A stretch of 64,000 nt of DNA, from assembly GCA_937930835.1 (NCBI GenBank), contig CALGLN010000085.1, forward strand, positions 22,898 through 86,897. Reading direction: 5' to 3'. The stretch comes from an uncultured Desulfomonile sp. Its GTDB lineage: Bacteria; Desulfobacterota; Desulfomonilia; Desulfomonilales; Desulfomonilaceae. Below the pieces are notes generated by a model. The model had not been told where the DNA came from and did not search any database. It saw only the letters and a list, made by a program, of their open reading frames with translations. This document shows, piece after piece, positions 6,988-56,208 of this stretch; positions within the stretch are counted from its first letter, which is position 1, and every line of letters starts with the position of its first letter. Made by a program: the position numbers and the translations under genes.

Positions 6988-8157
6988 TTAGAGTGTCCCA
7001 GAGATAACGATCCTTTGGATCTCGTTTGTGCCTTCGTAAATTTGAGTTATCTTTGCGTCTCGCATCATTCTTTCAACAGGATATTCGGTGCTGTAACCGA
7101 ATCCGCCCAGAACCTGAACTGCCTCTACTGTAGTCCACATTGCAACGTCAGAGCAGTATGCCTTTGACATTGAGGAGTGCCTAATGGTCTCGGGCGGTAT
7201 CTTGGAAAGATCTTTTTGGACTTTATCGAGAAGAGAACAGGTTTTCCACAACAACATACGTGCGGCAGTAATTCGCATCGCCATGTCTGCTAGCTTGAAG
7301 GCGATCGCCTGATGTTTTATGATCGGCTTACCAAACGCGACCCTCTCCTTGGCATACTGAGTAGCATACTCAAAAGCTCCAGCTGCTATTCCTAGGGCCT
7401 GCGCCGCCACAGACGGGCGACTGAAGTCCAGCGTTTTCATCATGATATGGAAACCGGCGCCTTCTCCGGCCAAGAGGTTTTCGGCAGGCACTTCGACATC
7501 CTCAAATATTAGTTCTCTTGTGTCTGAAGATCTTATGCCGAGTTTGCTTTCCTTTTTGCCAATCGTGAAGCCTGGCATTCCCTTTTCGAGTATGAATACG
7601 CTGGCCCCTTTATATGGCGCGACATCGGGATCCGTCACAGCGTAAACACTGAAGGTGTCAGCGATTCCACCGTTGGTTATCCACATCTTCGAGCCATTGA
7701 GTATATACTTGTCGCCTTTTTTGACTGCCCGGGTTTTCAGAGCCGCTACGTCAGAACCACCCTTGGATTCGGTCAAACCGAACGCCGCAGTTGTTTCTCC
7801 GGTTGACAAAGGTTTGAGATATTTTTCTTTCTGCTCATGATTACCCGCTAGGATTATCGGAAGACTACCAAGTTCCTGAACAGAAGGTATAAGAGCTACC
7901 GAAGCATCAGCCTTTGCTAATTCCTCTACCACGATGCAGTGAGCGATCATGCCGGCGGCCATTCCATCATATTCTGCTGGAAAATCAACGCCCATGAGAC
8001 CGTTTTCTCTCATGAGCTCGAGCATGTCGTATGGATATTCCCCCTTTTTATCTCTCTCCTCGGCTGTTGGGGCAACTTTTTCCTTAGCAAGCCTCCTGAC
8101 CATGTCCTGTAGCATCTGTTCTTCTTCGGTCAACGAGAAGCGGTCATTATCTTTCAT
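6988..8157 (-). CDS. Acyl-CoA dehydrogenase (short/medium-chain, butyryl-CoA dehydrogenase-like)
   Basis: 389 aa. Motifs: AFGLTE..GGSD, WITNG, and C-terminal QIYEGTNEIQR. Confidence 0.9.
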   Translation of the reverse strand: MKDNDRFSLTEEEQMLQDMVRRLAKEKVAPTAEERDKKGEYPYDMLELMRENGLMGVDFPAEYDGMAAGMIAHCIVVEELAKADASVALIPSVQELGSLPIILAGNHEQKEKYLKPLSTGETTAAFGLTESKGGSDVAALKTRAVKKGDKYILNGSKMWITNGGIADTFSVYAVTDPDVAPYKGASVFILEKGMPGFTIGKKESKLGIRSSDTRELIFEDVEVPAENLLAGEGAGFHIMMKTLDFSRPSVAAQALGIAAGAFEYATQYAKERVAFGKPIIKHQAIAFKLADMAMRITAARMLLWKTCSLLDKVQKDLSKIPPETIRHSSMSKAYCSDVAMWTTVEAVQVLGGFGYSTEYPVERMMRDAKITQIYEGTNEIQRIVISGTL

Positions 8158-27089: not shown

Positions 27090-27359
27090 TTAAGGTTCAG
27101 TCGTGTGTTGGTTATCCGTGATTCTCACAAATGCGTTTAAGTATCTGGATCGATAGCCGTATCGTTTGAGAAACTGGCTAGTTATATGAGACGTGGTCCC
27201 TGTGATGCAATAGACTACATTTTCTTTATCCACAGTTAGCCTGCAATATTCTTCATGTAGTCTGAAAAATGGAATGTTTAATGCCCCAGGTAACAAACCT
27301 CTGGCAAATTAACTCTCATCCCTGACATCCAAAATGATTTTTCCATCTGAAGTGTGAAG
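27090..27359 (-). pseudogene. Truncated and nonsense-interrupted single-domain rhodanese
   Basis: My translation gives LHTSDGKIILDVRDES-TAA-FARGLLPGALNIPFF...KENVVYCITGTTS. The in-frame TAA (27309-27311) sits where rhodaneses have the Glu of the E-F pair. A TGA (27360-27362) closes the frame just upstream, so the normal N-terminal ~25 aa are missing. The C-terminus lacks the usual GG..W end. Confidence 0.55.
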
Positions 27360-27365
27360 TCATTG

Positions 27366-27392
27366 TGGAGGGTCCTATCAATGGACCCTCCA
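27366..27392 (-). terminator. Stem-loop 14 nt after the stop of the multi-rhodanese gene (possible terminator or 3' stabiliser)
   Basis: Perfect 9-bp stem GGAGGGTCC / GGACCCTCC with a 7-nt loop, extendable by a T-A pair. There is no clear U-tract on either strand. Confidence 0.4.
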
Positions 27393-27405: not shown

Positions 27406-28788
27406 CTATTCTTCTAAGGTGTAAGCTCCCTCTTTATCTTTGTCAAAACTCAAGGTGGCACGTAAATAGCCCGCATTGTATCCCGCATTTTTCAATATGG
27501 TGTAGGCCATTTCCGCCCTGGCTCCAGTCGCGCAGTGAACGATAATTCTTTTGTCTTTGGGGACTTCAGAAATCCGTACTTCCAATTCATCAAGTGGAAT
27601 ATTAACTGTGTTTGGAAGTTTACCTTCGTTGACTTCAGCAACATTTCTTACATCAAGAATAATCGTATCAGGAGATGGTTTTTCAAGAAAACCCTTGAAC
27701 ACGGATAGTTCAACTTCGCCTGGAAGTAATTTTCTGACATAGTTAATAGTTGTCGCTGCGGCTTCCGTAGAAACGGTTTTACCCGCTGATTGCCAACCTT
27801 TAAAACCTTTGTCTAGTATACTGACCTGATTGTATCCCCATCCGGCGATAGCGTGAAACGCCTTCTTAGTCTCTTCCGAAACACCATCATCGCCATAAAG
27901 GATTATTGCGGCTCCCTTGAATTTCGGGAATTGATCCTTCAGCGCATCAATGCCGTCTTTCGGTAGCGACACAGCCTTGGGGATGTGTCCTTTAGCAATC
28001 AGATCAGCGGACCTGGTATCAATCAGGATGTATGAAGCGTCCAGTTTGTTATACTCTTCAATAGCTGCGTTGTTTGAAACGACTAAATGTCCAGCTTTTC
28101 TCCAATCAGGTAATCCAGCATGATAAACTTTGACATTCTTGTAGCCTAGTTTTTCCGCCTTCCTGGCGGCTAATGGGCTAAGCACTCAGGAAAATCCAGC
28201 GCAATAATAAATCTGGAGAGTATCTTTGTCCTTGAATAATTTCTCTGCAAGCTTATCAAATGCGAAAAAGGGCATACCAACGGCTGTGGGGATGTGTCCC
28301 TCGTTGTATCGTTCCATCGGACGACTATCAAGGAGGATGTAACTTCCTTTTTCAGGACCTTTGGCGACCAGGTCGGCTAACTGTTCAGCTGTTATGAGCT
28401 GTTCAGCAGGTACCGCAATACCCTTTTTGACCTCGATCTCTTTCGCGTAAGTTTTGCCGTCCTTCTTGGCATAAATTACCTTTACCGATTCCTCTTTGGG
28501 AATTTCCGGAATACTAGGCGCATTCTTGAGAACCGTGGCATCGTCAAAAGTAATGACTTCTAGACCCTTGTCAATCTGAAGCTGAAGGCAATTGGCTTTT
28601 ACCGATGCGCTCTTGAACTTGCCTGCCATCACATTCGATTGCTTGTCATACTCATGACACTTCAAGCAACTCTGATCCGATTTGGCAGGAAGCTTGTCAT
28701 CAGCTACCGCTAATCCGTTGAGCGTCCAAAAAACGCCCACGATCAGAAATGAAAAAGCGCCGATCACGAAAAGTGACCTTTTAGACAT
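27406..28788 (-). CDS. Exported CXXCH + triple-rhodanese protein, probable selenoprotein (Sec encoded by in-frame TGA 28186-28188, residue 201 of 460)
   Basis: ORFs 28186..28788 and 27406..28185 are in the same frame and separated only by TGA. Joined, they read ...DTLQIYYCAGFS-U-VLSPLAARKAEKLGYKNVKVYHAGLPDWRKAG, a single rhodanese domain. GGAG lies 7 nt upstream of ATG 28788. The signal peptide is MSKRSLFVIGAFSFLIVGVFWTLNGLAVA, followed by CLKCH. Domains 2 (ILYGDDG, no Cys) and 3 (IIVHCATGAR) follow. A hairpin lies downstream of the TGA. Confidence 0.6.
28142..28180 (-). promoter_or_regulatory. Candidate bacterial SECIS-like hairpin, starting 5 nt 3' of the in-frame UGA
   Basis: mRNA: UGA GUGCU UAGCC CAU UAG CCGCC AGGAA GGCGG AAAAA CUA GGCUA. 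Three stacked helices (5+3+5 bp) with a CAU bulge, an A5 bulge and a 5-nt apical loop containing GG. Confidence 0.5.
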
Positions 28789-29014
28789 ACTGGACTCCTT
28801 TCTAAAACTTTCTATGCGAACTAGTTAGGTGCAATCGCAAATTCATCCTTTGACGTGACGCCTAATTCAAAATTTGCCAAACAATTTCTAATATAATACA
28901 TATTGAATTCAATGATTGCAATATGTAAATAACTAGATATAACGATCCGGGGATGAACTATTCTTTAGTATTAAAGGTTGATGGCTCTAGCGCCTGTTCA
29001 ATATTGTGATAGCG

Positions 29015-30025
29015 CTAAGCGCGCTCGAACCTTCTCAAAGCATGTTCGATATCATCCGCCAGCTCGTTTGCGCTTGCATATCTCTCTGTCGCGAATGTGG
29101 AAAATCGCATCAGGATTTCATTGAGGTCTGAATGGATATAAGGATAAATCAGTCTGAGATTTGCCACCTGATTCGGAAACACCAACTGCATGTCCTCTAT
29201 GGTGAGGTCGTCAGCAATAACGGGAAACCTTTGGACCGCTTCGGAATATGACAAATAGTCTTTTCCAACGACGAACCCCAATAGTGTTCCCATTTCGAAG
29301 AGATCTCTGGGCTTTAAATCTTCTTTGATGCTGTAGTCGTAATCAAAATCAATCCAGATGAATCTTCCTGATTCCCTTTCAACATAGAGGTGATCCGGTG
29401 ATATATCACCGTGGATCTCCCCCATTTCATGCAGATCGCCCATGGCCCTGTAGGCCTCCACGAGCCTGTCTAAAAGATCCGGTAAAACTTCAGAGTAATA
29501 GCTGTAATGGTCCATTCTTACGGATCTGACCACATTGTCCAGACTCATACCGGCAATTCTTTCAATAATCCTGACGTTGTTGTGGTTTGAGTCAAGTCGA
29601 CTAAAACCCTGCATGAAACCCGAATGTCCTCTTACTCTAGATAGGATTCGAGCTTCTTTTTCAGGGTTCCTCAAGCACGTAGATTTAATTCCTTCAATTC
29701 TGCATTCAAATTCTTCATAAAAAGGAATCTTGATGATCTTTCTGGCGCCTGTAGTCAGGTCCACGCAACTCTTAACCCAGGGCTTCGGTTCTCCTTCAAG
29801 ACCGAATTTCTTTTCCGTTTCCGTCCCTCTCACCAAATATCCGACATCGTCCAAAAGAATTACATCTCCGTAATTCACATCATAAAAGTCGGTCGTATCC
29901 ACCAAAATCCTGTAAATATGACATACGTTGGACTCGGAAACATAGTCTTTTGCTAGTCCGCACCAATCCACACCATTTACATCCGCGGACCTAAGATTGG
30001 AAACACTCGGAGAGCTTTCTGCCAT
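29015..30025 (-). CDS. Atypical protein-kinase-like fold protein (336 aa)
   Basis: Catalytic-loop-like IHGDISPDHLYV and WIDFDYDY (a DFD in place of DFG), with a candidate VAIK-type Lys in KIIKIP. I place the start at ATG 30025. The listed 491-aa ORF extends upstream only by overlapping tspO in another frame. Confidence 0.6.
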   Translation of the reverse strand: MAESSPSVSNLRSADVNGVDWCGLAKDYVSESNVCHIYRILVDTTDFYDVNYGDVILLDDVGYLVRGTETEKKFGLEGEPKPWVKSCVDLTTGARKIIKIPFYEEFECRIEGIKSTCLRNPEKEARILSRVRGHSGFMQGFSRLDSNHNNVRIIERIAGMSLDNVVRSVRMDHYSYYSEVLPDLLDRLVEAYRAMGDLHEMGEIHGDISPDHLYVERESGRFIWIDFDYDYSIKEDLKPRDLFEMGTLLGFVVGKDYLSYSEAVQRFPVIADDLTIEDMQLVFPNQVANLRLIYPYIHSDLNEILMRFSTFATERYASANELADDIEHALRRFERA

Positions 30026-30111
30026 TTTTGTACTGATACCTTGAAATTGGAAAGTTAGCCAAAGCTTGACCTGATGTGATCTATGAAATTTCTGAAAACT
30101 ACTATCTTGAC

Positions 30112-30600
30112 TTAATTTAATTTCCAAATTTGAAAATTCAAGATACCTGCAAACATTACCCAAAGGAAATAGGGTATCAACAGGACCGACGAGACTTTGG
30201 ATATCGGGTAGAAAACACGAATGGTTACGCCTATGGCTACGAGCAGTACTAACAAATCCAGCAAGGCCCATCCTGGTTTCTTTAGGCCAAAGAAAATAAA
30301 AGACCACATGACGTTGAACAGCAGTTGAATCAGGAATACTTTTGCCGGCCTCAAAGTCTGGCCCAAATTTTTTCCGCGAGTTACCAACCACATACTTATT
30401 GACATCAATGAAAAAAGTGCTGTCCAAACTGCTCCGATCGTCCTGCCAGATGGAGTCCACTCCGGTTTTACTAGTGCGCTCTGATACCACCCCTCTACGT
30501 TCCAGCTAGTGAAATAGGCTCCAAGATACGCAGCCCCAAAAGTGATAGCAATTGACAGGAGCAATTTTGCTAAATCGTTCACAAGGTTATTTGTCCACAA
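30112..30600 (-). CDS. tspO: TspO/MBR tryptophan-rich sensory protein (5-TM)
   Basis: 162 aa. WYQSALVKPEWTPSG..IGAVWTALF...LFNVMWSFIFFG...LLIPYFLWVMFAGILN is a classic TspO pattern. TTG start; a nearby GTG is also possible. Confidence 0.85.
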   Translation of the reverse strand: MWTNNLVNDLAKLLLSIAITFGAAYLGAYFTSWNVEGWYQSALVKPEWTPSGRTIGAVWTALFSLMSISMWLVTRGKNLGQTLRPAKVFLIQLLFNVMWSFIFFGLKKPGWALLDLLVLLVAIGVTIRVFYPISKVSSVLLIPYFLWVMFAGILNFQIWKLN

Positions 30601-30773: not shown

Positions 30774-31754
30774 CTACTCAGATAAAAGAGCTTTTAATTC
30801 CTTATTGAATTCGGGAACGATTTTGAACAAATCACCGACAATACCATAATCAGCTTTTGTGAATATTGGAGCCTCTGTATCCTTATTAATAGCAACGATA
30901 ACTTTGGAAGATCCCATCCCTGCAAGGTGCTGAATAGATCCTGAAATTCCGCAGGCGATATAGAGATTCGGCGTCACGGTCTTACCCGTCTGGCCAACCT
31001 GATCCGAATGTGCCCTCCAACCAGCGTCTACAGCCGCTCTAGATGCTCCAACAGTTGCTGTTGGGCCCAAAATGGCTACCATCTCTTCCAAAAGGGTGTA
31101 ATCATTACCACCCATGCCTCTACCGCCAGAAACGATTATCTCGGCTTCCGTTAGGTCAACTTTACCGCTGGTGTCGAGATTGAGTTCCTTGGTCGTATAA
31201 GTCGCGCGGCTCGAATCGATTTCCACAGTTATTTTTTCGACTCCTCCGGCCTTGGGGTTTTCAACTGTTTCAAGCACATTTGGCCGTGCAGAAGCAATCT
31301 GGGGATTTCCAGTGGCGCTCCACTCTGCAAAGCACTTGCCGGCATACATCGGTCGTTTACCAACCAATGTGGAACCATCAAGTCTGAAAGAAACACAATC
31401 GGCGATCACTGCAGTTCCGAGCTTGGCAGCCGTTCGAGGCGCCAAATCTTTACCTTGCATGGTGTGGCTGAACAGAACTATCTCAGAACCTTTATCTTTG
31501 ATCACTCCAGCCATAGCCTGAGAGTAATACTCAGAATTGTAAGTCTCCAAAGCAGCTCCTTCAACCACAAATACCTTGTCCACACCGTATTTCGCAAGCT
31601 CAGGGGCGAATTGTTCGGTATCAGGACCTATTAAGACAGCGCCAACTTCTCCACCGAGTGAATCTGCTATCCTGCGAGCTTCACTCGCTAGCTCGAACGC
31701 TGATTTTTTCAATTTCCCAGATTTAACTTCACCGTATATTAGAACCTTACTCAT
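30774..31754 (-). CDS. etfA: Electron transfer flavoprotein alpha subunit (copy 1)
   Basis: 326 aa. C-terminal FAD-binding signature IVSGGRGMG, RAAVDAGW, QVGQTGK.V.P.LYIACGISG..QH..G. Confidence 0.9.
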   Translation of the reverse strand: MSKVLIYGEVKSGKLKKSAFELASEARRIADSLGGEVGAVLIGPDTEQFAPELAKYGVDKVFVVEGAALETYNSEYYSQAMAGVIKDKGSEIVLFSHTMQGKDLAPRTAAKLGTAVIADCVSFRLDGSTLVGKRPMYAGKCFAEWSATGNPQIASARPNVLETVENPKAGGVEKITVEIDSSRATYTTKELNLDTSGKVDLTEAEIIVSGGRGMGGNDYTLLEEMVAILGPTATVGASRAAVDAGWRAHSDQVGQTGKTVTPNLYIACGISGSIQHLAGMGSSKVIVAINKDTEAPIFTKADYGIVGDLFKIVPEFNKELKALLSE

Positions 31755-31795
31755 TGGTCAAAAGCCTCCGTAATAAAAACTTAAGATTAGTGGCC

Positions 31796-32581
31796 TTAAA
31801 TAACTTTGGCCTCGCTCCTCAGAAGACCCACTACTGTCTTTGCCACATCAGCGGGTTCCATACCCTCAAATTTCTGACCGGCTTTTCTCTCTGGCGGCAT
31901 GGTAAAATTGGCGCATTTCAGTTTGGGTTCAGCCGTCACGCCTAAGTCAGCCAAAGTCTTCTTGTCCACCGGTTTTTTCTTGGCCTTCATAATTCCGGGA
32001 AGAGACGCGTAACGTGGCTCATTCAGTCCTTTCTGAGAAGTCACTACGCAAGGTAACGGAGACTCTACTACTTCCTTGCCTCCCTCGACATCCCTTTCGC
32101 ATGTAACGGACTTCTTGTCAGCGGATACTTCCAATTTTGTTACGAGCGTGATCTGGGGAATCTGAAGTAACTCGGCCAAAATGGCTCCGGTTTCTCCCAA
32201 ATCATCGTCAATCGCCCTGTGCCCACAAAAGATAATGTCAAACTCCGCCTGCTTGGCTGCTGCAGCCAATGTCTGGGCTATGCAATACGGGTCTCCCTGA
32301 TTGACAGCATCGTCGTTAACATGTATTCCCTTATCGGCGCCCATTGCTAATGCCGTTCGAATGGCCTCAACCACCCTATCCGGGCCGATGCCTAGAATTG
32401 TGACATCTCCTGCTTTCATTTTCTCCTTAATCCGAAGAGCCTCTTCTACACTAAATTCGTCATAAGGATTAATTACATATTTGATACCGTCAGTAACTAT
32501 TCCTGACCCATCAGCCGCTACCTTTATTTGGGTTTCGGTGTCAGGAACCTGTTTCAAACACACCAAAGATTTCACTGTCAA
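31796..32581 (-). CDS. etfB: Electron transfer flavoprotein beta subunit (copy 1)
   Basis: 261 aa. LVCLKQVPDTE, LGIGPD, FDIIFCGHRAIDDD. Confidence 0.9.
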   Translation of the reverse strand: MTVKSLVCLKQVPDTETQIKVAADGSGIVTDGIKYVINPYDEFSVEEALRIKEKMKAGDVTILGIGPDRVVEAIRTALAMGADKGIHVNDDAVNQGDPYCIAQTLAAAAKQAEFDIIFCGHRAIDDDLGETGAILAELLQIPQITLVTKLEVSADKKSVTCERDVEGGKEVVESPLPCVVTSQKGLNEPRYASLPGIMKAKKKPVDKKTLADLGVTAEPKLKCANFTMPPERKAGQKFEGMEPADVAKTVVGLLRSEAKVI

Positions 32582-32853
32582 ATCTCCTTTCGAAATTAAG
32601 CCTGGTGAAGCAGTTTTTCAAAAACTCCACACTCTAGAGCGACTGGGAACAATCTTCTCGACAGGCCTTGATTATTTCCCCATATCTTTTCGAACAATTG
32701 CGTGAAGATCTACGCTCACAAGTTTTTTTGAGGCGTTTGTGCAACGAATTCTACACCTAAAAAAATAATTATATAACAATTCGCGCAGGTTGGCTATTTT
32801 GTTTTTCAAAAAAATGATTCATTTGTCAATTTCTTTAATCAGTTGCCCGCAAT

Positions 32854-52191: not shown

Positions 52192-53169
52192 TCAACCTTT
52201 AAGCTCTTTTATCTTTTCCTCCAAGGCCGGGACTATTTCGTTGATGTCCCCAACCACGCCGTATTGGGCGACACGGAAGATTGGAGCCCTTGGATCCTTA
52301 TTGACCGCCATAATTAGCGGTGATCCCTTTATGCCACCAACGTGTTGGAACGCGCCGCTTATTCCCAGCGCCAGGTAGATCTTAGGTTTCACCTCAATGC
52401 CTGAAGTTCCCACCTGATGATATTTGGGCAAAAGGTTCTTGTCCACGATTGGTCTTGAACACGCCAATACACCACCAACTGTATCGGCCAGAGATTGATA
52501 CATATCCATATCCGGTTCATCACCAATTCCACGACCAATCGATACGATGATCTCCGCCGATGATATGTCCACGTCCCCTTTCTCAGCCTCTTCGTAAGAA
52601 ACAAAAGTCTTCCTTAGCTTCGCAGAAGCCAATGGGGAATCCCTCTTTTCGATTGTGCCAGAAGCCTGTCCTGCTGGAGTGAACGAAAAACTTCCGCTTC
52701 TAAGTGTGACAACGATCTTATCGCAATTCTTGAATGACACTAACGCATTGATCTTGTAACTGTATATCTGTCTCAGGGCTAAAAGTTGGCCTTCTGACAC
52801 CTCAAATCCAAAACAGTCAGTCGCTAGAGCCGCATCCAACACTACTGAAAGTCCCGGGGCAAGATCTATTACTGAATTTGAATTACCCATCAGCAACAGA
52901 TAGTCGGACTCATCCTTAAGGATTGTGCTCAAAGTTTGTGTCATGGCGTCCGAGTTGAATGTTTCAAGATTAGGATCTTCCACAACCACAACCTTTGAAA
53001 ATTCTTGAGCCAGTTTTTCAGAAATTGAAGAAACATTGTTTCCTAAAAGCAGGCAAACGATCTCTCCTCCGAGTTGAGAGGACACTGATCTAGCTGCCGA
53101 CAACGCTTCCCATGTAGTATCACGTAGAGTTCCGTTCCGATGCTCGGCTAGCACATAAATATTCTTCAT
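52192..53169 (-). CDS. etfA: Electron transfer flavoprotein alpha subunit (copy 2)
   Basis: 325 aa. IVSIGRGIG, SRPIVD, QVGTSG..V.PK.YLALGISGAFQH. Confidence 0.85.
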   Translation of the reverse strand: MKNIYVLAEHRNGTLRDTTWEALSAARSVSSQLGGEIVCLLLGNNVSSISEKLAQEFSKVVVVEDPNLETFNSDAMTQTLSTILKDESDYLLLMGNSNSVIDLAPGLSVVLDAALATDCFGFEVSEGQLLALRQIYSYKINALVSFKNCDKIVVTLRSGSFSFTPAGQASGTIEKRDSPLASAKLRKTFVSYEEAEKGDVDISSAEIIVSIGRGIGDEPDMDMYQSLADTVGGVLACSRPIVDKNLLPKYHQVGTSGIEVKPKIYLALGISGAFQHVGGIKGSPLIMAVNKDPRAPIFRVAQYGVVGDINEIVPALEEKIKELKG

Positions 53170-53171
53170 CG

Positions 53172-53960
53172 TTATAGAACCCCCTTTTCCTTAAGAATCT
53201 CGGCTAGGCGAGCCGCCGCTTCCTCAGTGGAGCCTTTTATGATTTCAGCCCCTTCGCCTTCTGGTGGGAGGTAAACTTTTTCAATAACTATTTTAGAACC
53301 TTCCATGCCAACCTGATTCTCGTTCATTCCAAGCTCGTCAAGATCAACTGTTGGAATATCCACGGAGGCAACTTTTCTGACAGCGCGAATTGAGACAAAC
53401 CGCGGCTCATTCAAGCCAGTTGCCACGGAAATTACCGCAGGTAAACCCATCTCAACGTTCTCATAAAGCCCACCCTCAAGCTCACGCCTGAACTTTGCCT
53501 TTCCATCAGATATTTCTATTCGAGACACTAGTGTAGCGCTGGGAACACCTAACATGGCCGCCAACATTCCTCCGACCTGTCCGCCACCATCGTCTTCGGC
53601 CAGAGTTCCCGTTAATACCAAGTCGAAAGGCCTTTTCTTGATAAATTCGGCAAGAGCCTTGGCCACCACAAATCCGTCGGATCCCTCAAAGGAGTCGTTC
53701 CAAATCTGGAAGGCTTCATCGGCCCCGCGGGCCAGACATTCCCGGAGCATTTCCTCCGCATCTTCTGGAGCAACACTCACCACAGTGACAGCGCCCTCAT
53801 ACTTTTCCTTGAGTTGGACAGCCTCTTCAATAGCAAACCGATCCCAATCGTTGAGGTCATAATCCAGGTCGTCCTTCTTGATGTCTTTACCTCCTGAGGC
53901 TATTGATAACTCAGCCTCAGAGGTATCTGGTATCCACTTCATGCAGGCAATAATTTTCAT
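53172..53960 (-). CDS. etfB: Electron transfer flavoprotein beta subunit (copy 2)
   Basis: I place the start at ATG 53960 (GGAGG 5 nt upstream). MKIIACMKWIPDT, FDLVLTGTLAEDDG. Confidence 0.85.
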   Translation of the reverse strand: MKIIACMKWIPDTSEAELSIASGGKDIKKDDLDYDLNDWDRFAIEEAVQLKEKYEGAVTVVSVAPEDAEEMLRECLARGADEAFQIWNDSFEGSDGFVVAKALAEFIKKRPFDLVLTGTLAEDDGGGQVGGMLAAMLGVPSATLVSRIEISDGKAKFRRELEGGLYENVEMGLPAVISVATGLNEPRFVSIRAVRKVASVDIPTVDLDELGMNENQVGMEGSKIVIEKVYLPPEGEGAEIIKGSTEEAAARLAEILKEKGVL

Positions 53961-54019
53961 GAATCCTCCGAATGGTATAATCAAATGCTGGTCAGCGAAC
54001 TCTCCAACATTCGAGTTTG

Positions 54020-56056
54020 CTATGACATTGAGCGATCTGCCAGTTCTACCAGGTCAATGACTTCTATTTTGCCTTCATTTCCAGTTGTCTTTATGGCGTC
54101 CTCAAGATTGATCAGACAGAAGGGGCAAGCCGTAACAATGACCTGAGCTCCAATTTCTTGCGCCATTCTAACACGTCTCTCGCCCATCCTCTGCGTCTCT
54201 TGTTCGTTCTCATACCACAACATTATTCCGCCGCCGCTGCAGCAAAAACTTCTGGAACGAGATCTTTCCATGTCTCTGAATCGAGCCCCAGGGATACTGT
54301 TAATAACAAAACGTGGCTCTTCATAAACGTTGTTGTGACGACCTAGGTAGCAGGGGTCATGGTATGTCACCACACGGCCTTTCAAATATTCACCAGAAAA
54401 TTTTATCTTGTTTTCACGTATCAGCTTCGACAACAACTGGCTGCAGTGACTGATGGGGAACTTTTTTGGGTAATCGTTCTTGATCACATTGAAAGCATGA
54501 GGATCAAATGTCACAATTTGCCTGAAATTCCTTGCTTCAAAAGCCTCGATATTTTTCTCGGATACCTGTTCGAACAAACCCTCTTCGCCTATGCGCCTAA
54601 CTTCATTGCCCGAATCATTTTCATCTTGACCGAGTATGGCAAAATCACATGAGGACTTACCAAGTATTCTGGCGAAACTCTTTGAAATTTCCTGAATCCG
54701 AGGATCAAAAGATCCGCAACTGTCTACAAAGAAAAGGTATTCGGCGTTTTCCCCTTTCTTTAGCTCTCTTACTTCCACTCCCTCTATGTCTTTGGCCCAA
54801 GCTGACCTCTTGCTCTTCACCGCTCCATAAGCATTGCCCTTTTTCTTGATCTGTTGAAGTGGTTTCTGTAAAGACTGTGGCAACGCTCCTTGCTCAATAA
54901 GATAGCGTCTCATGTCAACTATCTTGTCAATATACTCGATGAAGATTGGGCACTCCTGCTCACACGCTCCACACGTAGTACAAGCCCAAATCTCGTCTTC
55001 AGTAATGATGTCGCCTACAAGCTTTTTGTCTTTGAAATCCTTGGGAGTTCCAAAGACAGGATACTTTGCGTAAGCGTAATCCCGAGCCTTTATACTAATC
55101 ATTTTTGGGGAAAGAGCGCGTCCCACGATATTGGCCGGGCAATTGTCTGAACACCTCCCACAGTCCGCGCATGAATAGAAATCCAGGACATGTTTCCATG
55201 TGAAACCTGTAAGGTCGTTAACCCCACATTGCTCAAGTTCCATCCAATCATCGACTCCATATTTTACAGGCTTGATCTTTCCATGATTGAGGTTAGCGAA
55301 ATACACGTTTGGAATAGCAGTAATTACATGAAAATGCTTGGAAATTGGCAGGTAATTAAGTAGTCCGAAAAAGAATAGTATGTGAGCCCAGTAACCTCCG
55401 ATATGCAATTGCTCCAGTGCCTGCGAAGGAACTGATTTCATGAACATCGCAGCAAAATTTGTCGCTGGAAACAAATACCATGGCTCGGAATGGGCTTCTC
55501 CGATGAATGCGCTGCCATCATAAATCATGTCCGTGACCATAAGCGCCGAGACAAGCCCTAATATTATATAAGCTTCTCCCTCATGTCCTGATGTTCCAGG
55601 ATGAGCGTACCGCTGAGGTTTCCAGATAGCCCTCCTCGCAATAGCTATCAAACAGACCACCAAAACAACCAACACCGTATAATCTTTGATGACATCGTAA
55701 ACAAATGCTGCCGAACCTGTAAGCAAAGGAAGATGAAAATCAGCTGAAAAACCCCTGCCTATAAGCGTCAACGACCTTAAAGACAGAATCATGAAGCCCG
55801 CAAACAGTAAAATGTGTAGTATGCCGGCGCCCAAATAGCGTGGTTGGCGCAACTGCCCAAAACCATACAAAACCATCATTTTGATGCGTTGGGAGACATC
55901 CGAAAAACGTGGATCAGGCGCGCATCTTTTCAGGAGATCAATGCGTTTCCACATGACATAAGCGAAAAAAGATAACGATGCTATTAGAACTATTAAGGCG
56001 ACACTCGGAGCAGGAACTCCGGCTAGTGGAACATTCGCGGGCTCTAGGATTGTCAT
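54020..56056 (-). CDS. Membrane-bound Fe-S oxidoreductase: N-terminal multi-TM (NarI/DsrM-like) domain fused to a HdrD/DsrK/GlpC-like 2x[4Fe-4S] + CCG domain
   Basis: 678 aa with about 6 hydrophobic helices in the first 260 aa. CADCGRCSDNCP and CTTCGACEQECP ferredoxin motifs. CCG-type motifs VDSCGS / DPCYLGRH / FCCSGGG / TACPFC. Confidence 0.8.
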   Translation of the reverse strand: MTILEPANVPLAGVPAPSVALIVLIASLSFFAYVMWKRIDLLKRCAPDPRFSDVSQRIKMMVLYGFGQLRQPRYLGAGILHILLFAGFMILSLRSLTLIGRGFSADFHLPLLTGSAAFVYDVIKDYTVLVVLVVCLIAIARRAIWKPQRYAHPGTSGHEGEAYIILGLVSALMVTDMIYDGSAFIGEAHSEPWYLFPATNFAAMFMKSVPSQALEQLHIGGYWAHILFFFGLLNYLPISKHFHVITAIPNVYFANLNHGKIKPVKYGVDDWMELEQCGVNDLTGFTWKHVLDFYSCADCGRCSDNCPANIVGRALSPKMISIKARDYAYAKYPVFGTPKDFKDKKLVGDIITEDEIWACTTCGACEQECPIFIEYIDKIVDMRRYLIEQGALPQSLQKPLQQIKKKGNAYGAVKSKRSAWAKDIEGVEVRELKKGENAEYLFFVDSCGSFDPRIQEISKSFARILGKSSCDFAILGQDENDSGNEVRRIGEEGLFEQVSEKNIEAFEARNFRQIVTFDPHAFNVIKNDYPKKFPISHCSQLLSKLIRENKIKFSGEYLKGRVVTYHDPCYLGRHNNVYEEPRFVINSIPGARFRDMERSRSRSFCCSGGGIMLWYENEQETQRMGERRVRMAQEIGAQVIVTACPFCLINLEDAIKTTGNEGKIEVIDLVELADRSMS

Positions 56057-56208
56057 GACCAGAATCCTCTACGCTCGTGCAAAAATTTTTGTGGCCTGTC
56101 TCAAATTAAGGATATTCGAAAGGCGCCCACGTCTAAAGAAAGGAACGAAGACCACACCGGGCGCCTTCAGCAATCACCGATTACCAATCAACGTTGACGG
56201 AGACAATT

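Follow-up and report, generated by a model that had tools for sequence, protein, structure and literature searches.

An in-frame TGA codon in Desulfomonile points to an exported rhodanese selenoprotein with a CXXCH motif

Introduction

Does a TGA codon in the middle of a rhodanese domain end one protein and precede another, does it mark a gene in decay, or is it read as selenocysteine (Sec)? The question is raised by a locus in an uncultured Desulfomonile sp., on a stretch of 64,000 nucleotides (nt) of contig CALGLN010000085.1 (assembly GCA_937930835.1, positions 22,898 to 86,897). We call this whole stretch the window and use its own numbering throughout. On the minus strand, two open reading frames (ORFs) follow each other in the same frame with only a TGA between them, and an earlier note on this DNA had proposed that they form one gene in which TGA encodes Sec. 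Three lines of evidence uphold this central claim: the pairing of TGA with cysteine codons across 80 species, a hairpin resembling a selenocysteine insertion sequence (SECIS), and equal constraint on both sides of the codon. We hold with high confidence that the locus is a single Sec-encoding gene.

One reading frame across a TGA codon

The first ORF, 28788..28186, encodes 200 amino acids (aa) and ends ...DTLQIYYCAGFS at TGA 28188..28186. The codon directly after it, GTG 28185..28183, opens an ORF of 259 aa in the same frame that extends to 27406. The TGA is the sole separator of the two ORFs, and the product of its read-through measures 460 aa. The gene can be laid out as follows.

27406..28788, minus strand: single coding sequence of 460 codons plus a TAG stop codon (27408..27406), with an in-frame UGA at codon 201; delimited by direct reading of the sequence and by Pfam, with tblastn matches in 80 genomes that cross the TGA.
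28800..28795, minus strand: Shine-Dalgarno-like AAGGAG, 6 nt 5' of the ATG at 28788.
28186..28188, minus strand: UGA codon 201, a predicted selenocysteine, from the alternation of TGA and Cys codons in orthologues.

The Pfam rhodanese profile (PF00581) matches the read-through product in three stretches with 150.2 bits against a cut-off of 22.2 (E = 2.8e-44). Its best stretch, residues 139-231, crosses the TGA, which splits the first of three rhodanese domains. The earlier note had described this cut through a single domain and had stated that the downstream piece lacks a Shine-Dalgarno sequence of its own. Both observations hold, as do all of its coordinates and sequence statements: when the window is read directly, nothing resembling a Shine-Dalgarno sequence is found in the DNA upstream of GTG 28185. 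It had also predicted that automatic annotation would split the gene, and public gene calls do show pieces of 200 aa and 259 aa. This same 200 + 259 split, with the same TGA, is present in three independent assemblies of the organism.

TGA alternates with cysteine codons in orthologues

By tblastn against species-representative genomes, we collected 80 loci from Desulfomonilaceae, 'Syntrophaceae', Desulfarculaceae, Desulfobacterales and Nitrospirota/Thermodesulfovibrionales. The codon aligned with the TGA is TGA in 74/80 loci, TGC or TGT in 6/80 and TAA or TAG in 0/80. The 74 loci from foreign species, one tandem copy and the window's own gene constitute the 76 TGA genes that are counted below. 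Judged from these alignments, the recurrence of TGA in 74 of 80 other species is far beyond chance. Among the hits of a homology search, about 17 proteins were full-length (~460 aa) and more than 100 were fragments with a length of 255-260 aa. These fragments start exactly after the TGA codon and cover only the C-terminal 56% of the query. Cys is aligned with the TGA in 17/17 of the full-length homologues, within the motif YYCxGxS-C-VLSP. The comparison of orthologues at residue 201, proposed in the earlier note, thus yields single genes that carry either Cys or TGA. The Cys forms are dispersed among clades, which points to repeated exchange between Sec and Cys.

Sequence constraint is similar on the two sides of the codon: the mean identity of orthologues to the window protein is 55% 5' of it and 53% 3' of it, and TGA orthologues reach down to about 39% identity. 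In 25 of the 76 TGA genes the next codon is not a start codon, and the downstream part therefore cannot be an independent gene. A reassigned genetic code, with TGA read as Trp or Gly, was ruled out, because 14 other long ORFs of the window, polA and cinA among them, end with TGA. The genetic code is therefore standard, and recoding would be a local event. A scan of the 64-kb window yielded no other convincing candidate for a read-through TGA, so this stretch offers no independent proof of Sec decoding.

Several orthologous loci had features of their own. A metagenome-assembled genome (MAG) of Nitrospirota carries two tandem copies of the family (L051, 6001..8900), both with the in-frame TGA and the hairpin described below. 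In a Thermodesulfovibrionales MAG (L049, ~6666), a second in-frame TGA lies at the codon of the invariant Trp229 (GMPE*KKAG); a defect of this copy, an error of sequencing or another cause may account for it. In four long-read 'MFD' MAGs (L034, L042, L043 and L048), orthologue matches have lengths that are not divisible by three and reading frames are truncated, which looks like indel errors and not biology.

A conserved hairpin follows the TGA codon

A short G+C-rich hairpin lies 3' of the TGA.

28155..28169, minus strand: SECIS-like hairpin CCGCC-AGGAA-GGCGG with its apical loop at 28164..28160, recognised by stem conservation and covariation.

The hairpin starts 19 nt past the UGA and its loop begins 21 nt past it. 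Its register is fixed: counted from the U of UGA, nt 20-24 pair with nt 30-34 and nt 25-29 form the loop. The five-base-pair core stem is intact in 74/76 TGA genes as opposed to 2/6 Cys genes (Fisher p = 1.2e-4), and the G at nt 26, the second loop position, is kept in 75/76 TGA genes. In the remaining four of the six Cys-type genes the stem is broken although the same peptide is encoded (AARKAE/AAKKAE).

Covariation was scored on 74 aligned sequences (alignment A2). Pairing there is all but constant at the five core pairs, and pair 21-33 occurs as CG (49), UA (14) or UG (8). Two-sided changes were also found at the flanking pairs 18-36, 19-35 and 25-29. When the 3' partners were slid by one to three columns, pairing dropped from 73% to 22-49%. 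The covarying positions are synonymous third positions of Ala and Ser codons, and third-position entropy amounts to 0.1-0.8 bits in codons 7-12 versus 1.3-1.8 bits in the flanking four-fold codons. The criteria of bSECISearch reportedly place the apical loop about 16-37 nt from the UGA, with a G among the first loop bases; here the loop lies at 21 nt with G at loop position 2. These patterns support the view that the hairpin is under selection and acts as a bacterial SECIS element. A search for such an element had been suggested by the earlier note, and what it brought up is a covarying hairpin 3' of the TGA that has decayed in 4/6 Cys-type genes.

Domain architecture of the protein

The exported, 460-aa architecture with a CXXCH motif and three rhodanese domains that had been described for the read-through product was recovered, the rhodanese part as three Pfam stretches. 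Residue conservation was counted over 70 intact family members.

28702..28788, minus strand: signal-peptide-like N-terminus, residues 1-29 (MSKRS, a hydrophobic core, then AVA before DD), by sequence pattern.
28654..28668, minus strand: CLKCH (CXXCH), residues 41-45, with C41, C44 and H45 invariant in 70/70.
28423..28641, minus strand: family-specific beta-barrel of CusF-like oligonucleotide/oligosaccharide-binding (OB) fold, approximately residues 50-122, from an AlphaFold model and Foldseek.
28081..28407, minus strand: rhodanese domain 1, approximately residues 128-236, interrupted by the TGA (Pfam best stretch 139-231).
28201..28203, minus strand: TGC codon of Cys196, the loop cysteine of domain 1, invariant in 70/70.
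27769..28071, minus strand: rhodanese domain 2, approximately residues 240-340, with Gly299 and no active-site Cys (Pfam and family alignment).
27454..27717, minus strand: rhodanese domain 3, approximately residues 358-445, with the loop H-C419-A-T-G-A-R and its Cys codon at 27534..27532 (Pfam and PDB matches).

A start resembling a signal peptide is present in all intact orthologues, from which we infer that residues 1-29 are a signal peptide and that the protein is exported. The CXXCH motif lies 10-15 residues past the predicted cleavage site in all intact members. An AlphaFold model was made on the closest Cys-type orthologue, which is 62% identical to the window protein (predicted local distance difference test, pLDDT, 84; below 50 for residues 1-29). 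In the model, three rhodanese domains come after an N-domain rich in beta-strands, and the structural neighbours of the whole model are the multi-domain rhodaneses 1YT8, 6MXV, EanB and YnjE. Modelled alone, the N-domain has its best Foldseek matches in the periplasmic Cu/Ag chaperones CusF and SilF (template modelling score 0.58-0.72). The same domain had no Pfam or PDB sequence match, and an exhaustive search with it returned only members of this family and one spurious eukaryotic protein with immunoglobulin repeats. Its only invariant residues are C41, C44, H45, G56 and K121.

The loop of domain 1 reads Y-C196-x-G-x-x-U201-x-L-S-P, with Sec201 five residues past Cys196. Y195, C196, G198, U/C201, S204 and P205 are invariant in this loop and L203 is kept in 68/70 members. 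According to the profile alignment and the secondary structure of the model, the loop is 2-3 residues longer than the canonical rhodanese loop; in the orthologue model, the catalytic Cys is followed by a helix that begins at +7 in domain 1 and at +4 in domain 3. The earlier note had equated Sec201 with the Arg of CATGAR in domain 3. By counting this is correct (+5), but strict equivalence fails given the longer loop. Domain 3 had been described as a Cys-type rhodanese, and this is the case: its canonical loop, H-C-x-T-G-x-R-A-E-M, has invariant C419, G422 and R424. Domain 2 had been called inactive, with Asp in place of Cys. The absence of Cys stands, but the catalytic position is Gly299, followed by Asp300/301, and is occupied by N, S, D, A, G or T across the family.

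Proposed mechanism

Taken with its mechanism, the reading that one gene encodes an exported, periplasmic selenoprotein of 460 residues through recoding of UGA 201 is marginally less secure than the single Sec-encoding gene as such, and still very likely. The G+C-rich hairpin 19 nt downstream would direct the recoding of UGA codon 201 to selenocysteine. The mature chain would then carry, behind the signal peptide, the CXXCH motif on a flexible leader, the small CusF-like beta-barrel and the three rhodanese domains, with domain 2 as a presumed non-catalytic spacer. Cys196 and Sec201 would be adjacent at the N-terminus of a helix, in the extended loop of domain 1, and would most likely serve as a redox-active Cys/Sec couple.

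We tentatively propose a catalytic cycle of three steps, which we regard as possible and by no means as the expected outcome. In the first step, Cys419, Cys196 or both would take sulfane sulfur, or selenium, as a persulfide from thiosulfate, polysulfide or a related compound; the chalcogen bound at Cys196 might be delivered by the canonical Cys419 domain. In the second, the selenolate of Sec201 would attack the persulfide and sulfide would be released, leaving a Cys196-S-Se-Sec201 bond or an S-S-Se bridged intermediate. In the third, the selenenylsulfide would be re-reduced by electrons arriving via the CXXCH site, as haem c or as a redox-active dithiol. The logic of the Cys/Sec redox couple is supported by the precedents of TsoB and MccSep, two selenoproteins that are compared with this one below.

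A bolder version, to which we give little credence, is that the CXXCH binds a haem c and that the Cys196/Sec201 loop of domain 1 occupies the distal side of this haem or is faced by it. If it were true, selenium-sulfur catalysis at a haem centre would have a second, evolutionarily independent case, analogous to MccSep but with a rhodanese as its scaffold, and a periplasmic reductase of polysulfide/thiosulfate (or selenite), so far unrecognised, would be widespread in Desulfomonilia, Desulfarculia, Desulfobacteria and Nitrospirota.

The neighbourhood of the gene

Just downstream of the gene lie a hairpin and the remnant of a second rhodanese gene.

27367..27391, minus strand: perfect 9-base-pair hairpin (GGAGGGTCC-attgata-GGACCCTCC), 15 nt past the stop codon, from the window sequence.
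27090..27350, minus strand: remnant of a single-domain rhodanese with an in-frame TAA at 27311..27309 (...ILDVRDES*FARGLLPGALNIP...) and no proper N-terminus.

The hairpin is a possible terminator; it has no T-run and is absent from the listing of a consensus terminator scan. The rhodanese remnant has an orthologue in the related locus L001, with a stop at the same codon and a frameshift, and the two remnants are ~67% identical versus 93% for the main gene. By these lesions, the remnant is a decaying pseudogene.

Synteny across the 80 loci, with an electron transfer flavoprotein (ETF), CinA, PolA and a kinase-like ORF, extends only to close relatives. An apparent neighbour 'cluster' at 19 loci was discarded as an artefact of antisense ORFs. 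The window holds two separate EtfAB-like pairs on the minus strand, 52195..56068 and 30777..32617; one lies just upstream of the selenoprotein locus and the other adjoins an ORF of 682 aa. The latter has a Cys-rich C-terminal tail (...VTACPFCLINLEDAIK...) and resembles, by eye, CCG/Fe-S oxidoreductases. A TspO/MBR gene at 30112..30600 on the minus strand (Pfam E = 4.5e-41) is overlapped over ~380 nt by a 491-aa ORF on the same strand (29015..30490) that has no Pfam match. Public gene callers report the full 491 aa and skip TspO. The 491-aa ORF is probably over-extended at its 5' end, its version in relatives being ~338 aa long. Finally, ARAGORN reported a 'tmRNA*' at 7019..7403 on the plus strand, where no Rfam tmRNA reaches the gathering threshold. 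It falls inside an acyl-CoA-dehydrogenase-like ORF of 398 aa on the opposite strand and is probably a false positive.

Evidence against the proposed reading

Several observations weigh against the selenoprotein reading or parts of it. Taken alone, the hairpin of the window is no outlier in folding energy (z = -1.1), and it matched no SECIS family of Rfam, either at the gathering thresholds or in a permissive scan. Unremarkable energies and the lack of an Rfam match are usual for the short, gene-specific SECIS elements of bacteria. Neither the 64-kb window (ARAGORN and motif scan) nor the flanks that were fetched contain selA, selB, selD or tRNA-Sec, and the flanks of 48 related loci likewise yielded no tRNA-Sec. 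These negatives carry no information, since linkage of such genes is not normally expected. Peng et al. (2016, Suppl. Table S2) credit Desulfomonile tiedjei DSM 6799 with 28 genes for selenoproteins, and the clade is therefore Sec-proficient. The neighbouring mini-rhodanese, a true pseudogene with its TAA, indicates that gene decay does occur at this locus. On the side of function, no conserved operon partner that would point to a substrate or an electron donor was found across the 80 loci.

The remaining points concern the CXXCH. Its leader is modelled at pLDDT <50, the domain behind it is an OB-fold with neither a cytochrome fold nor a match to a cytochrome family, and the N-domain holds no invariant His or Met that could serve as distal haem ligand. 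Haem is favoured because the CXXCH is invariant, including its His, and an export signal is present; neither the OB-fold nor the missing conserved distal ligand speaks for it. In other words, the protein has the motif of c-type cytochromes in an apparently exported chain, and the cytochrome fold and distal ligand were not found. The motif of the earlier note is therefore retained (70/70), while its description as haem-c-type is softened in view of the CusF-like OB-fold and the lack of a cytochrome signature. Covalently bound haem c, a redox-active dithiol and a metal site are all candidate functions of the CXXCH.

Alternative explanations

The alternative that survives best accepts the selenoprotein and differs in its chemistry. 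Cys196/Sec201 and the CXXCH would bind or detoxify a soft metal or metalloid without sulfur turnover, and the protein would be a periplasmic chalcogen/metal chaperone or reductase acting on Cu(I), Ag(I), Hg(II), arsenite, selenite or tellurite. The closest structural relatives of the N-domain, CusF and SilF, fit this proposal, but the metal ligands of CusF (His/Met/Met/Trp) have no conserved counterparts here. CXXC(H) and Cys/Sec pairs are good ligands for soft metals. A hallmark of the arsenate-reductase/Cdc25 branch is an extended rhodanese loop, and LmACR2, a Sb(V)/As(V) reductase, is a weak match to domain 1; the Arg of the CX5R arsenate-reductase loop is nevertheless missing from the loop of domain 1. 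Related chemistry is known among selenoproteins, as MccSep also reduces selenite (PMC13510729) and several catalogued selenoproteins take part in mercury and arsenic chemistry (PMC13188914). Against this, the loci have no ars, mer or cus neighbours, and domain 3 has the canonical loop of a sulfurtransferase. We consider this alternative unlikely, on a par with the haem-Sec proposal.

Much less probable still is that the TGA is a genuine stop codon, followed by an independent gene. The locus would then have two products, namely an exported CXXCH protein of 200 aa whose rhodanese is truncated, and a protein of 259 aa that starts at GTG 28185. This is how gene callers and the NCBI annotation treat the TGA, and the GTG directly after it makes such a start conceivable in the window. 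It would, however, halve one rhodanese fold and rely on a GTG that has no Shine-Dalgarno sequence and that is replaced by a non-start codon in a third of the TGA-type orthologues (25/76). The downstream piece would also lack a signal peptide, though Cys-type orthologues are exported whole. A stop codon would further have to be always TGA, never TAA or TAG, to alternate with Cys codons only, and to be followed by a covarying hairpin that is intact in 74/76 TGA genes and 2/6 Cys genes.

That a Cys codon (TGC/TGT) was mutated or misread to TGA, in a pseudogene or through a sequencing or assembly error, might be suggested by the true decay of the adjacent single-domain rhodanese (TAA at 27311..27309, N-terminus lost), by the frameshifts in some long-read relatives and by the extra TGA in L049, but this reading is for practical purposes already refuted by the recurrence of the TGA, which is shared by 74 further species with identities as low as about 39% and by three independently made assemblies of this organism, and by the equal constraint on both halves of the gene next to a pseudogene that diverges much faster.

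Novelty and significance

The locus almost certainly belongs to a widely conserved selenoprotein family that is systematically mis-annotated, as far as comparative sequence data can tell. NCBI names the closest relatives 'rhodanese-like domain-containing protein', with a length of 259 aa that corresponds to the truncated piece. More than 100 public protein clusters, including some from NCBI-annotated MAGs, are C-terminal stubs of 255-260 aa, with a separate gene call for the N-terminal 200 aa. These stubs could be repaired with one curated model and the fixed SECIS position, and the family would enlarge the selenoproteomes of anaerobic bacteria that cycle sulfur and halogens.

As a category the protein is not new: selenoproteins of the rhodanese type are known, as are Sec/Cys pairs and Sec at the +5 position of the loop. 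The novelty implied by the earlier note thus falls away for the kind of protein, since rhodanese selenoproteins are catalogued in five forms and TsoB has Sec at +5, and it persists insofar as the protein reaches the cut-off of no curated model. Sec here would partner the catalytic Cys across an extended loop (C-x4-U) instead of replacing it, in parallel with the U-x4-U of TsoB. Such a pairing suggests that the rhodanese fold is used for redox chemistry, via a selenenylsulfide, and not for plain sulfur transfer. The family is a candidate for periplasmic sulfur/selenium reduction in Desulfomonilaceae and Thermodesulfovibrionales, where this step is poorly defined.

Comparison with known systems

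A 2026 review of the selenoproteome distinguishes five rhodanese-type selenoprotein forms: UxxS, UxxG, CxU, UxxG and UxxxxU (PMC13188914). Forms 1-4, namely UxxS, UxxG, CxU (NF041203, 'LYCAU') and UxxG, come mostly from Deltaproteobacteria (PMC13188914, PMC9312934), and none of them is described with the CXXCH/three-domain architecture. The window protein keeps Cys196, whereas forms 2 and 4 have Sec in place of the catalytic Cys. Form 3 (LYCAU) has Sec at +2, whereas the window protein has it at +5 and an invariant Gly at +2; model NF041203 aligns to domain 1 with 58.9 bits and does not reach its cut-off of 115. The sequence U201-x-L203-S204, with S204 invariant, is formally UxxS like form 1 (WP_010941598.1, Geobacter), to which the window protein could therefore be related. 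It is conceivable, if somewhat doubtful, that form 1 already covers this very Sec site. The rhodanese lipoprotein ExtH of Geobacter was weighed as a candidate for form 1 and dismissed, as it is not reported to be a selenoprotein.

Two Cys-only proteins resemble parts of the window protein. BH2092 of Bacillus halodurans (PDB 3NHV, 3O3W) aligns to domain 1 without gaps and has an extended loop with two cysteines, ITYC-WGPA-C as compared with IYYC-AGFS-U. It is a rhodanese of unknown function which, unlike the window protein, is cytoplasmic and has a single domain, and our literature search found no publication on it. YnjE of E. coli (PDB 2WLR/3IPO) and other multi-domain rhodaneses (1YT8) share the exported, tandem arrangement of three rhodanese domains, some of them catalytically silent. 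Structural matches of the YnjE type extend over ~410 columns at a sequence identity of ~15%. In contrast to the window protein, YnjE has a single active Cys, in its last domain, and neither Sec nor a CXXCH or OB-fold.

The closest catalogued parallel to the loop is TsoB (NF045694; Haft & Tolstoy 2025, as listed in PMC13188914), a U-x4-U rhodanese fused to a DsbD-like thiol-disulfide electron carrier. As in TsoB, the rhodanese loop of the window protein has a chalcogen pair spaced by x4, with Sec at the same +5 position. Among selenoprotein models, that of TsoB also scores best on domain 1 (residues 122-240), with 76 bits against a cut-off of 805. TsoB has two Sec and is fused to a DsbD-like membrane module. 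The window protein would combine Cys with Sec (CxxxxU loop), has no DsbD-like part and, as a soluble exported chain, joins a CXXCH leader, an OB-fold and two more rhodanese domains to domain 1. The rhodanese of TsoB is coupled to an electron supply of the thiol/disulfide type, and we propose the CXXCH site as its counterpart in the window protein.

A functional analogue of the proposed mechanism is MccSep/ExtKL of Geobacter, a periplasmic pentahaem selenoprotein that reduces polysulfide and selenite, with cleavage of S-S (and Se) bonds via a Se-(S/Se)-S intermediate (PMC13510729). Like the window protein, MccSep is periplasmic and combines CXXCH, a catalytic Cys and Sec. Its fold is that of an unrelated multihaem cytochrome, with five haems and with the Cys as a haem ligand, whereas the window protein has a single CXXCH as putative cofactor site and places its Cys/Sec pair in a rhodanese loop. 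The invariant exported CXXCH next to a Cys/Sec pair nevertheless echoes this haem-Sec polysulfide reductase. The interest of the family thus lies in its C-x4-U redox loop, its invariant exported CXXCH and a possible parallel with haem-Sec sulfur reduction.

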